Shown here piece by piece: positions 27,309 through 34,090 of a stretch of DNA of 64,000 nt (its first letter is position 1; each line of letters starts with the position of its first letter). The notes below the pieces were generated by a model, which searched no databases, was not told the origin of the DNA, and saw nothing but the letters and a program-made list of their open reading frames with translations. This DNA comes from Chthoniobacterales bacterium (lineage in GTDB: Bacteria; Verrucomicrobiota; Verrucomicrobiia; Chthoniobacterales; Chthoniobacteraceae): positions 71,813 through 135,812 of the forward strand of contig JBBQZX010000013.1 in NCBI GenBank assembly GCA_038207335.1, written 5' to 3'. A program made the translations under genes and the position numbers.

Positions 27309-27692
27309 TCACCAAAGCGTCTTGATTTCGTAATCCCCAAATGCCCCGTCCGACGTGATGACAGTGAAACCCTCCACATCCGACTGCGCTATCAGCATCC
27401 GGTCGAATGGGTCGCGATGATGCAGCGGTAGCTCGGCGAGGCGCTCGGCATGACTGAGCCGGATCGGCAGCAGTTGGAGCCCATCCTGCATCTGGGCTTT
27501 CGCAAACTCAGCAATACTCATCTCCAAATCCAATTTCCCGATGCCAGACTTGATCGTCATCTCCCAAACGCTGGCGATCGAAAGCCAAATCTCCGATTCA
27601 CCGTCTTCGAGAATCTTGCGAGCACGACGGCTCAGTTTCTCAGGGTCGCGCCACGACCAAATGAGGACGTGAGTATCTGCGAGGTATCTCAC
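27309..27692 (-). CDS. vapC: VapC-family PIN-domain toxin
   Basis: LADTHVLIW, SIASVWEM, HHRDPFDRMLIAQ, TSD; GTG start overlaps the antitoxin stop. Confidence 0.92.
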   Translation of the reverse strand: MRYLADTHVLIWSWRDPEKLSRRARKILEDGESEIWLSIASVWEMTIKSGIGKLDLEMSIAEFAKAQMQDGLQLLPIRLSHAERLAELPLHHRDPFDRMLIAQSDVEGFTVITSDGAFGDYEIKTLW

Positions 27693-27973
27693 ATGTAGTC
27701 CTTGAAGTCCTCGAGCGGTGCGTCGAAATCCGGTGCCATCCATCCTTTGCCCCGACCCTTTCCCAAGACCCGAATTTTCTTTGCCGGCGCAGCGATCGGC
27801 CGGATTTCGGCGATCGGTTTGCCGTGCTTGGTTACGTAGAAAGTCTCCCCGTGCGCGACCTTTTGCAGGATCGAGGAAAGATGAGTTTTCGCCTCAAAGG
27901 CACCGACTTCCTGCACCCGTACCGAGACGATTTCTTCCTGCTCGTATTTCACCGGTTTTTGCTTCTCTTTCAT
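27689..27973 (-). CDS. Phd/YefM-family antitoxin
   Basis: VGAFEAKTHLSSIL, GE...VTKHGKPIA, C-terminal DFDAPLEDFKDY. Confidence 0.9.
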   Translation of the reverse strand: MKEKQKPVKYEQEEIVSVRVQEVGAFEAKTHLSSILQKVAHGETFYVTKHGKPIAEIRPIAAPAKKIRVLGKGRGKGWMAPDFDAPLEDFKDYM

Positions 27974-31096: not shown

Positions 31097-31963
31097 GTGA
31101 TCGCTTCACGAAACGAAATTCGCGGCGAGGCAGTCGCGTGCCATTACGACGAACTCGACGAATTTTACCGCGACGTTTGGGGCGAACACGTCCACCACGG
31201 GCTATGGCTCCGCGGAAATGAATCGCGCGAAGTGGCGGTGCGCCAGCTCGTCGAACTCGTCGCCCGCGAGGCGCGAATCGAGCGCGGGAGCCGCGTCTGC
31301 GACATCGGCTGCGGTTACGGCGCGACGGCGCGGATGCTCGTCGAGGATCGCGGCGCGGAAGTCTCAGCGATCACGATCTCCCCGCGCCAGCACGCATTCG
31401 CTCAGACTCGCGCAGACGGGCGCGCGAATCCCGAGTGGCATCTCGGCGACTGGCTCGGCAACGATTTTCCCAGAGAGTCGTTCGATGCCGCATTCGCGAT
31501 CGAGAGTTCCGAGCACATGGCGGACAAGCCGCGCTTTTTCACCGAAGCGCTCCGCGTACTGCGCCCCGGCGCGCGGCTAGTCGTCTGCGCGTGGCTTTCC
31601 TCCGAGCATCCCAGCGCCCGCGCCGAGCGGTGGTTGCTGGAGCCGATTTGCCGCGAGGGGCGCATGCCCGGGATGGGGAGCGCGAGCGAATATCGGCGAC
31701 TCGGCGTCGAGGCTGGCTTCGAGTGCGAGCGCGTCGAAGACGTCTCCGATCGCGTCTCGCGCACCTGGCCGACCATCGTCCTTCGCTTTGTGGTAAAGCT
31801 CGCGAGCCGACCGAGCTATCTGAAATTCCTCTTCAACCGCCACGCGGGGAACCGCGTCTTCGCGGTCACGATCCTCCGCATCTGGATCGCCTACCGAGTC
31901 GGCGCGATGCGGTACGGCGTCTTCACTTTTGTGAAATCCGCAGCGCGCGCGGAAAACATTTGA
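31097..31963 (+). CDS. Class I SAM-dependent methyltransferase (tocopherol/sterol methyltransferase-like)
   Basis: HYD...WGEHVHHGLW, DIGCGYG, IESSEHM, RVLRPG. Confidence 0.87.
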   Translation: MIASRNEIRGEAVACHYDELDEFYRDVWGEHVHHGLWLRGNESREVAVRQLVELVAREARIERGSRVCDIGCGYGATARMLVEDRGAEVSAITISPRQHAFAQTRADGRANPEWHLGDWLGNDFPRESFDAAFAIESSEHMADKPRFFTEALRVLRPGARLVVCAWLSSEHPSARAERWLLEPICREGRMPGMGSASEYRRLGVEAGFECERVEDVSDRVSRTWPTIVLRFVVKLASRPSYLKFLFNRHAGNRVFAVTILRIWIAYRVGAMRYGVFTFVKSAARAENI

Positions 31964-31987
31964 CGCTCCCGAAGAGCGCGCTACTTT
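31960..31987 (+). promoter_or_regulatory. Candidate sigma70-type promoter for the riboswitch operon
   Basis: TTGACG 31960-31965, 16-nt spacer, TACTTT 31982-31987, about 10 nt before the aptamer. Confidence 0.5.
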
Positions 31988-31996
31988 CCGCGCTAC

Positions 31997-32154
31997 TTTC
32001 ATCAAGAGTGACCGAGGGACTGGCCCGTTGAAGTCACGGCAACCGCTCCGAAGCAGTTCAAACTGCGGCGGAGGACCAGGTGCCAAATCCAGCTCCAGCG
32101 CAGATTTTGCAAAGTCGCGAGACTTTCAAGAAAAGCGGTGGGGAAAAGATGAGA
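31997..32154 (+). ncRNA. SAM-I (S-box) riboswitch aptamer
   Basis: ATCAAGAG...GAGGGACTGGCCC..GAAG..CGGCAACC...GGTGCCAAATCC...AAGATGAG; P1 TTCATC/GATGAG. Confidence 0.92.
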
Positions 32155-32237
32155 CGGAGCTCGCAGCCTCTGCTGCGGGAATTCCATCGTCGCCGAATGA
32201 TCGCTTGCGATCTCTGGGTGAAAGCGACCACGCATCT

Positions 32238-33494
32238 ATGGACAAACCATTCTTCAGCAACCTCAAGTGCCGCGAGTGCGGCCAGCTTTACCCAAAGGAA
32301 GCGATCCACGTCTGCGACTTCGATTTCGGCCCGCTCGAGGCGGCTTACGATTACGAGGCGATCGGCGCGGTGCTCACGCGCAAAGTCATCGAGTCACGCC
32401 CGCAGTCCATGTGGCGATACCGCGAGCTGCTCCCGATCGACGGCGAGCCGACTGTCGGTGCGCAGGTTGGATTCACGCCGCTCGTGAAGGCCGACCGGCT
32501 CGCGAAGGTCCTCGGCATCCGTGAGCTCTACATCAAAAACGATACGGTCAACTACCCGACGCTCTCGTTCAAAGACCGCGTCGTCTCTGTCGCGCTGAGC
32601 CGCGCGCGAGAGCTGGGATTCACGACCGTCGCGTGCGCCTCAACTGGCAATCTCGCGAACTCCGTCGCGGCGAATGCCGCGAGCGCGGGCCTGAAAAGCT
32701 ACGTGCTCATCCCCGCCGATCTCGAGCAGGGGAAAGTGCTCGGCTCGCTCGTGTATGGCACGAACGTCGTCTCGATCCGCGGCGCCTACGACCAGGTGAA
32801 CCGCCTCTGCTCCGAGATCGCGGGCAAATACGGCTGGGGCTTTGTGAATGTGAACCTCCGTCCGTATTACGCCGAGGGGTCGAAGACGATGGGCTTTGAA
32901 ATCGCCGAGCAGCTCGGCTGGCGACTGCCTCAGCACACTGTCATCCCGATGGCCAGCGGCTCGCTCCTCACGAAAATCGACAAGGCGTACAAAGAGTTCA
33001 CGCAGCTCGGGCTGGTGGAAAATGCGCCTTATAAAGTGTATGGCGCGCAGGCCAGCGGATGCTCGCCGATCAGCACCGCGATGAAGCGCGGCACCGACAT
33101 CGTGAAGCCCGTGCCGAAGCCGCAGACCATCGCGAAGTCCCTCGCCATCGGCACCCCCGCCGACGGCTACTACGCGATCCACACGATGAAGCGCACCGGG
33201 GGCACCGCGGAGGAGTGCACCGACGAGGAGATTGTCGAAGGCATCCGCCTGCTTGCGGAATACGCGGGCATCTTCGCCGAGACCGCGGGCGGCGTCACTG
33301 TCGCATGCGCGAAGAAGCTCATCGCCAGCGGAGTCATCCCGAGTGGCGATAGCGCGGTGCTCTGCATCACCGGGCACGGACTGAAAACGCAGGAAGCCAT
33401 CCTCGACAAATGCGGCGCACCGCGTGTGATCAGCCCGAGCCTGCGCGAATTCGAAGACCAAATCTACCAACCCGACACCGCAGCCGCCGTGTGA
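32238..33494 (+). CDS. Threonine-synthase-like PLP enzyme (possible O-phosphohomoserine sulfhydrylase)
   Basis: N-terminal CRECG Zn-ribbon, PTLSFKDR (PLP Lys), ASTGNLA, EGSKT, ITGHGLK; lies under a SAM riboswitch. Confidence 0.88.
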
Positions 33495-33523
33495 AGCGGC
33501 CAACCTTAAAATCCCAAATCCCT

Positions 33524-33796
33524 ATGCCATCCGTCCTCATCCCCACACCGCTCCGCAAACTCACTAACGAACTCGAGACCGTGCAGGCCGCGGGCGCGAA
33601 CGTCGGCGAGCTCCTCGACAACCTCGACCTCGCATTTCCCGGCTTGAAGAACCGCGTGTGCGACGAGCAGGGAAACGTCCGCCGCTTCGTGAATGTGTAT
33701 GTCAACGGCGAAGACATCCGCTTCCTCGAGGAGCGCGCCACACCGGTCGCCGAGACCGATGAAATCAGCATCGTGCCCGCCATCGCCGGCGGCTAG
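33524..33796 (+). CDS. MoaD/ThiS/CysO-family sulfur carrier protein
   Basis: [20 protein letters not shown]-terminal PAIAGG di-glycine. Confidence 0.93.
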
Positions 33797-33804
33797 GCGC
33801 CCGC

Positions 33805-33832
33805 TCTCCATTCTCAACTCCCAACTCTCAAC
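33805..33832. repeat. Heptamer tandem repeat (TCTCAAC-like x4)
   Basis: tctccat/tctcaac/tcccaac/tctcaac. Confidence 0.65.
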
Positions 33833-33841
33833 CTTCCCAAA

Positions 33842-34090
33842 ATGGCTGAAGATAAAACACGTTTGTGGCTCATGTTCCCGACCCGGCTCATCACGCGGCC
33901 GATCGTCTGGGAGCTCGGCAAAAACTTCGAACTCGTAACCAACGTGCGGCAGGCGAGTGTGACGGATGAAGTCGGTCTCGTCTCGCTCTCGCTGGCGGGC
34001 GAGCGGGATGAGATCAAGAAGGCGATCGCCTGGCTCGAGGAGTTGGGAGTGAAAGTCGAACCCGTCGAGATCAACACGATCGAAGGGTGA
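33842..34090 (+). CDS. Stand-alone NIL-domain protein
   Basis: L-x-FP...PIVWEL...F...TNVRQA...G...LAGE..EIKKAIAWLEELGVKVE, typical NIL (ACT-like) pattern. Confidence 0.82.
   Translation: MAEDKTRLWLMFPTRLITRPIVWELGKNFELVTNVRQASVTDEVGLVSLSLAGERDEIKKAIAWLEELGVKVEPVEINTIEG

Follow-up and report, generated by a model that had tools for sequence, protein, structure and literature searches.

The window analysed here, a stretch of 64,000 nt from a Chthoniobacterales bacterium (NCBI GenBank assembly GCA_038207335.1, contig JBBQZX010000013.1, positions 71,813 to 135,812 of the forward strand), contains a module composed of a SAM-I riboswitch aptamer followed by three genes, all on the + strand and separated by intergenic gaps of 29 and 45 nt. 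The genes encode a pyridoxal phosphate (PLP) enzyme of the threonine synthase (ThrC) fold, a small sulfur carrier and a stand-alone NIL protein. We consider it quite likely, judging from sequence and gene content, that this operon would convert O-phosphohomoserine to homocysteine through the MetM/MetO route, which Hasebe et al. in 2024 reportedly described as the MetM/MetO/MoeZ/Mec homocysteine route of Streptomyces albulus. A sequence-only reading of the same DNA had named a ThrC-fold PLP enzyme, a GG-ending carrier and an 82-aa NIL-only protein in one orientation, and all three were confirmed. The features of the locus are as follows.

31960..31987, + strand: putative sigma-70-type promoter (likely), TTGACG-16 nt-TACTTT, with hexamers at 31960 and 31982
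31996..32155, + strand: SAM-I (S-box) riboswitch aptamer, RF00162, full model 1-108
32156..32237, + strand: expression platform, hairpins without a U-tract, from folding and a terminator scan
32238..33494, + strand: MetM-like PLP enzyme of the ThrC fold, 418 aa, ATG start, PLP lysine K112, PALP E 2e-64; predicted O-phosphohomoserine-using homocysteine synthase
33524..33796, + strand: MetO-like sulfur carrier of the ThiS/MoaD fold (ThiS family), 90 aa, ATG start, free C-terminal GG (ends IAGG)
33842..34090, + strand: stand-alone NIL protein (MetN C2-like, ACT-like), 82 aa, Pfam NIL E 2e-10 and no other domain; predicted ligand-sensing accessory subunit

The S-box assignment held in a covariance-model scan, in which the aptamer scored 66.7 bits with RF00162, where the gathering score is 44.4 (E 2.4e-13), and a genome-wide scan found no other SAM-I element in the source genome. 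The minimum free energy fold of the aptamer region gives a four-way junction (z -2.6 for 31990-32260). No intrinsic terminator was found on the + strand of the leader, and its constrained ON and OFF folds lay 1.6 kcal/mol apart with no clear switch seen. A consensus scan called 0 promoter sites ahead of the aptamer; the promoter-like hexamers of the sequence-only reading are nevertheless present, and they are more than a chance match because TTGAC stands 39-45 nt 5' of the aptamer core in 74/74 related loci with enough upstream room. These related loci are those of the 80 best relatives, mostly from Chthoniobacterales/Spartobacteria or the wider Verrucomicrobiota. The aptamer was detected in 78 of the 80 (the remaining 2 have <135 nt upstream), the carrier adjoins the enzyme in 73 of the 77 with room, and NIL is the neighbour in 43 of the 71 with room, or 46/80 overall. 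The recurrence of aptamer, carrier and NIL across the 80 loci marks the module as a unit beyond chance. Four loci (L037, L045, L056 and L057) have the riboswitch and the enzyme with no carrier or NIL downstream. No relative was found in viral contigs.

The structure model of the enzyme (predicted local distance difference test, pLDDT, 93.5) matches solved ThrCs with template modelling scores of 0.77-0.78 by query at 33-35% identity. The phylogenetic comparison with ThrC placed the enzyme outside the ThrC clade. In a quick-search tree of 82 proteins, it fell into a clade of 58 rows (SH-aLRT 98) together with a protein of Nonomuraea gerenzanensis, and an approximately unbiased (AU) test on 28 of the 82 tree rows rejected its grouping with ThrC (p-AU 5.8e-7). 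The positions equivalent to T88, R160 and N188 of Thermus thermophilus ThrC, numbered from a sequence alignment and which we take to be phosphate-site residues, are L, Y and S in the window enzyme; a second, hom-linked ThrC of the source genome has T, R and N. The Nonomuraea homolog, one close actinobacterial match from a plasmid collection, is 55.7% identical to the enzyme and has a SAM-I element upstream and a GG carrier downstream (the carriers are 50% identical); its 9-kb locus, which alone was covered, contains no NIL. By this proxy comparison rather than one with S. albulus MetM (A0A059WBP2), the enzyme is most likely of the MetM type. Its N-terminus (window 32268-32325) carries a CxxC...CxxD segment, a possible zinc ribbon, which reads CxxC...CxxC in the Nonomuraea homolog. 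Other ThrC-like proteins are fused to a LeuA allosteric domain or a PadR domain (P0240, P0241, P0264; P0245, P0253).

The product could in principle be a different sulfur amino acid, such as cysteine from phosphoserine, or cysteate. Such a proposal would draw on the resemblance of the carrier to CysO-type carriers and on the CysM-like genes, sulfite reductase and rhodaneses present in many distant clusters. However, the distant clusters hold a separate CysM-like gene beside the enzyme, the source genome has a CysK-like gene of its own, and the control by S-adenosylmethionine (SAM) points to methionine. With the cysteate synthase model TIGR03844, moreover, the enzyme reached 60.5 bits against a cut-off of 324.9, and we regard this alternative as highly improbable.

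The content of the source genome, which is 94.7% complete, bears directly on the function of the enzyme. The sequence-only reading had left room for the enzyme being the only ThrC, and this is not the case: a second ThrC, 36% identical to the enzyme and with canonical ThrC motifs, lies directly after the homoserine dehydrogenase gene on contig C27. The ThrB model is matched over its cut-off, the ThrB_alt model found no match, and both a MetH-size frame and the CysK-like gene are present. A MoeB/MoeZ-type activator, which the proposal had called for, is encoded as a MoeZ-type E1+rhodanese gene at C2:117293-118477, unlinked to the operon. The search for metX, metY and metB found none of them in the source genome: no full-length enzyme of the MetB/MetC/MetY/MetZ type (PF01053) was detected beyond three weak partial matches, aminotransferase-like by eye, and profile searches found no MetX, MetA, MetE or DUF39. 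With Hom, ThrB and MetH present and the other routes not found, the source genome can make O-phosphohomoserine and methylate homocysteine, and no other recognised route in it links these two compounds.

The distribution across the order follows the same pattern. We surveyed 151 Chthoniobacterales genomes, of which 103 bear the enzyme and 48 do not. Neither MetX nor a full PF01053 enzyme is present in 59/103 enzyme-bearing genomes vs 2/48 without the enzyme, and the module would thus fill a methionine gap in many Chthoniobacterales, since those 59 show no other homocysteine route. In a sample of 251 genomes from the phylum, an ortholog occurs in 10, and all 9 besides the source genome have a second ThrC-like gene. 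Taken together, genome content, tree and profile across genomes support the earlier suggestion that the enzyme would make homocysteine rather than threonine. Two single-contig genomes of 0.9 Mb, G090 (L123:3746-5300) and G114 (L124:3695-5249), keep the enzyme, the GG carrier, MoeZ, ThrB and a second ThrC, while neither the riboswitch nor NIL was detected in them; the pattern fits a joint loss of regulation (riboswitch and NIL), probably in one event. From their size and order, we guess that both are reduced endosymbionts, and they may hand homocysteine to a host. Methionine is listed among the pathways with missing genes in such symbionts in the available part of PMC7857533. Separately, one family (f3, 17 genomes, e.g. 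G048 and G271) has PF01053 enzymes throughout and lacks both the module enzyme and MetX; the 2 genomes of this family tested gave no MetA match.

A GG terminus is present in 73/75 carrier matches from related loci, and a free GG end implies that the carrier would need no trimming. JAB matches occur in 6/151 genomes of the order, which almost always runs the module without Mec. The source genome has a second carrier, read by eye as MoaD-like and lying beside a MoaE-like gene. Among the 120 longer carrier matches listed, 29 double and 2 triple tandem carriers occur (P0303-P0420), and carrier-E1 and carrier-PLP enzyme fusions are also present by their Pfam labels.

Several observations weigh against a homocysteine-forming MetM/MetO operon. 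Other homocysteine enzymes coexist with the module, a PF01053 enzyme in 43/103 enzyme-bearing genomes and a MetX-like gene in 15, so that the exclusion between the enzyme and other routes is partial. The incompleteness of the source genome limits the absences recorded there, and the surveyed genomes are kin rather than independent, for which reason Fisher p-values carry no weight here. An adjacent carrier is missing in 4/77 loci. No Mec-type JAB protein was found in the source genome, where one sub-cut-off match was RadC-like by eye, and a search with a cluster-linked JAB query found nothing in 10/10 genomes, with no positive control. The remaining points favour an alternative in which the enzyme has two functions or serves mainly as a second threonine synthase/deaminase, with homocysteine arising by another, unrecognised route. 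The enzyme scores 277.2 bits with the ThrC model TIGR00260 against a cut-off of 167.1 (it stays under the cut-off for five other ThrC models), and it shares the fold of solved ThrCs. According to the available part of PMC12172450, a Microcystis homolog 51.6% identical to MetM had threonine synthase and deaminase activity in vitro and did not fully act as MetM in cells. Furthermore, the two 0.9-Mb genomes keep the module while no MetH or MetE domain was detected in them. Against this alternative stand the SAM riboswitch, the separate hom-linked ThrC, the changed phosphate-site residues, the tree, the 59 genomes with no other homocysteine route, and five metagenome clusters (L175, L181, L182, L183 and L185) in which a canonical thrC follows the NIL gene. 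We therefore consider this alternative improbable and retain the predicted homocysteine synthase.

The NIL protein follows the enzyme closely across the order. NIL matches were obtained in 89/151 genomes, of which 9 in frames of 347-416 aa were set aside as MetN-like by size and score alone; the small NIL is thereby found in 80/103 enzyme-bearing genomes vs 0/48 without the enzyme. The 48 enzyme-less genomes span 7 families, and in 5 of these, other genomes have both the enzyme and NIL. Together with its adjacency in the related loci, this distribution disposes of the concern, raised with the sequence-only reading, that NIL might not be conserved beside the module genes. The 80 small NILs divide into 56 operon-linked and 24 unlinked copies; identity with the window NIL is 65-84% for the 20 unlinked copies examined. 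The upkeep of copies away from the operon argues that NIL has a function. A ~117-aa protein with a signal-peptide-like start, confined to one lineage, either separates the carrier from NIL or directly precedes an unlinked NIL (L066:6660-7013, L067:6673-7026, L074, L080 and L116). At L046:6583-7053, a member of a conserved ~150-aa protein family follows the carrier in the place of NIL; 12/80 loci have a member on the same strand, a median of ~400 nt downstream of the enzyme (e.g. L065:6635-7096).

The association of NIL with the carrier extends beyond Verrucomicrobiota. Among the 120 longer carrier matches listed, 71 are fusions in the order carrier-GG-linker-NIL. By source labels and Atlas clusters, and with taxa available for few members, the indications are of Nitrospirota, Myxococcota and Thermodesulfobacteriota and, in the case of free NIL, of Chloroflexota. 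A metagenome scan with the fusion alignment returned 80 loci, 67 of them with a NIL <=1.6 kb from the carrier (14 fused), a share that is inflated because the query was the fusion alignment itself. The enzyme was outside the query, and a MetM-like gene stands just upstream in 56 of the 59 metagenome carrier+NIL loci with room. A JAB gene, which cleavage after GG would need, is present in 3 of the 6 fusion clusters that were scanned for neighbouring genes, and a SAM-I element in 4 of the 14 metagenome loci scanned. In distant clusters L137, L142, L155, L168 and L206, an Rrf2-family regulator lies next to the enzyme-carrier-NIL genes, and the four of these that were scanned (L137, L142, L155 and L206) have no SAM riboswitch.

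One may ask whether NIL is a passenger here, a split-off half of the NIL/ferredoxin protein of the DUF39 pathway or of a MetN transporter. Automatic names on such proteins ('L-aspartate semialdehyde sulfurtransferase ferredoxin' or 'ABC-type methionine transport ATPase') would lead to this view, and the available part of PMC5764234 describes NIL/ferredoxin as acting in homocysteine synthesis in Desulfovibrio. Yet the source genome has no DUF39, and the 82-aa protein is its only NIL, so that no MetN there carries one. The protein itself has no cysteine or Fe-S motif. The absence of small NIL from all enzyme-less genomes and the high identity of the unlinked copies also speak against a passenger, for which we see very little likelihood.

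What NIL might do is suggested by its fold. The model (pLDDT 90.6) has its best fold matches in MetN C2 domains, and N34 aligns with MetN N295. Methionine binding by MetN was undetectable when N295 was changed to Ala, as given in the available part of PMC6233128. In three sets of NILs, N34 is kept in 45/46, 66/71 and 61/67, and P20 in 46/46, 70/71 and 67/67. These features suggest that NIL could be a feedback sensor binding methionine or a related metabolite, a proposal that we hold to be evenly balanced between right and wrong. Three observations weigh against it. At the position of MetN I297, the NILs almost invariably have R36, and the ligand or a docking surface may therefore differ from that of MetN; none of the 20 unlinked copies examined has a SAM aptamer, and the genes around them are unrelated; and NIL is missing in 23/103 enzyme-bearing genomes, from 3 families, which makes it likely to be accessory. 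The same 23 genomes make the scaffolding role less likely, which the sequence-only reading had offered beside sensing.

These data also bear on the main alternative, which we hold to be less likely than sensing, namely that NIL is a carrier-binding chaperone or adaptor, which would protect or present the thiocarboxylated carrier and steer the sulfur of a shared MoeZ between MetO and MoaD. It is with the carrier that NIL is fused, in the order given above, and no NIL-enzyme fusion occurs among 16 long enzyme homologs scanned. A docking surface is suggested by the near-invariant R36 and by conservation of the tail that follows the NIL domain in the small NIL proteins, and the MoaD-like carrier of the source genome would provide the second client. 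On the other hand, the Asn and Pro of the MetN methionine site are kept in NIL, and NIL is absent from 23 enzyme-bearing genomes, 10/10 of those examined still keeping the GG carrier. We thus place ligand sensing ahead of the adaptor role.

With these assignments, a route can be outlined for the homocysteine-forming operon. First, Hom and ThrB, whose genes are present, would supply O-phosphohomoserine. MoeZ, encoded elsewhere in the genome, would then adenylate and thiocarboxylate the GG end of the carrier, and in this scheme must serve MoaD as well. Following ThrC chemistry and the summaries of MetM, the PLP enzyme would catalyse the elimination of phosphate and attach the carrier sulfur to C-gamma rather than water to C-beta. 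Homocysteine would then come off the carrier with no help from a Mec/JAB peptidase, which the order mostly lacks. MetH would methylate homocysteine, and SAM, as is known for this riboswitch class, would turn the operon off. In a last step, which may equally well hold or fail, methionine or a related metabolite would bind to NIL, which is probably dimeric as MetN C2 is, and NIL would then restrain the carrier or the enzyme. The effect would be a fast feedback at the O-phosphohomoserine branch point, such as is placed on homoserine acylation in other routes.

Tentatively, and with somewhat less conviction than for sensing alone, we propose that small NIL may be a third component, so far undescribed, that the MetM/MetO route has in several phyla. 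It would be a trans-acting sensor of methionine (or a related metabolite), produced either free or within a carrier-GG-NIL polyprotein that a JAB peptidase cleaves, and would exert fast feedback on sulfur-carrier chemistry at the O-phosphohomoserine branch point, with Chthoniobacterales running the route without Mec. In the available parts of the literature searched, including PMC13759103 with its supplements, PMC12172450, PMC1779556 and PMC2948915, no NIL is described with MetM or MetO; this is a weak negative, the original MetM report and the E1-superfamily survey (Burroughs 2009) lying outside its coverage. Should NIL prove to be a sensor, a thiocarboxylate sulfur relay would be under the control of a free regulatory subunit, an arrangement that we did not find described, and the protein would offer a direct test case for what isolated NIL domains bind. 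The Mec-free form makes the product-release step of MetM testable.

Upstream of the module, a SAM-dependent methyltransferase gene (31097-31963) overlaps the -35 hexamer with its end. It was considered as a module member and rejected, as apart from the three genes of the module no neighbour family occurs in more than 12/80 loci. Elsewhere, the window contains a tRNA whose anticodon reads UCU (1983-2056) and two short genes that by eye resemble a PIN-domain toxin and a Phd-type antitoxin (27309-27973).

Among known systems, the S. albulus route, known to us also through the available part of bioRxiv 2026.09.15.751699, is the closest. GapMind 2026 (Table 2 and supplement S1D, in the available part of PMC13759103) lists the route as MetO, Mec, MoeZ and MetM and states that MetM is often misannotated as threonine synthase; in Chthoniobacterales, the enzyme gene carries the annotation of a second threonine synthase. 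The available part of PMC12172450 places a SAM riboswitch upstream of S. albulus metM. The window module shares with S. albulus MetM and MetO (A0A059W7F4) a ThrC-homologous enzyme, an adjacent carrier, an upstream SAM riboswitch, MoeZ in the genome and the supply of O-phosphohomoserine, and the same arrangement, with the same gene order and motifs, recurs at the Nonomuraea homolog of its clade. Unlike the S. albulus route, it belongs to a different phylum and to a genome without detected Mec, its carrier has a free GG end, and its NIL gene is outside the four steps that GapMind gives in the parts cited. Since Mec is missing and a third gene is added, the locus is best described as a variant of the MetM/MetO route, its membership in the family resting on proxy evidence. 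What is new lies in the NIL partner and in the form without Mec; the core chemistry had been published before. The novelty seen by the sequence-only reading accordingly stands for NIL and not for the enzyme-carrier pair, which, as that reading itself had said, is the published MetM/MetO route.

With ThrC (Aquifex 2ZSJ, Thermus 1UIM/1V7C and B. subtilis 6CGQ), the enzyme shares the fold, the PLP lysine motif and the likely substrate. It differs from ThrC in the equivalents of T88, R160 and N188, in its extra N-terminal Cys-rich segment and in its separate clade, and it is SAM-controlled and carrier-linked in a genome that has its own ThrC. The window NIL has its best sequence and fold match in the C2 (NIL) regulatory domain of MetN from E. 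coli MetNI (3DHX, 3TUZ), with the equivalents of P281, N295 and A299 kept. In contrast to MetN C2, it is free-standing, with relatives also fused behind the carrier, lacks an ABC ATPase, has Arg at I297 and carries a conserved C-terminal tail. Like the NIL/ferredoxin proteins of the DUF39 pathway (MA1822 and DvMF_0262), it represents a NIL domain tied to homocysteine synthesis; unlike them, it has no ferredoxin domain and stands in a genome without DUF39, beside a different enzyme with a different substrate.

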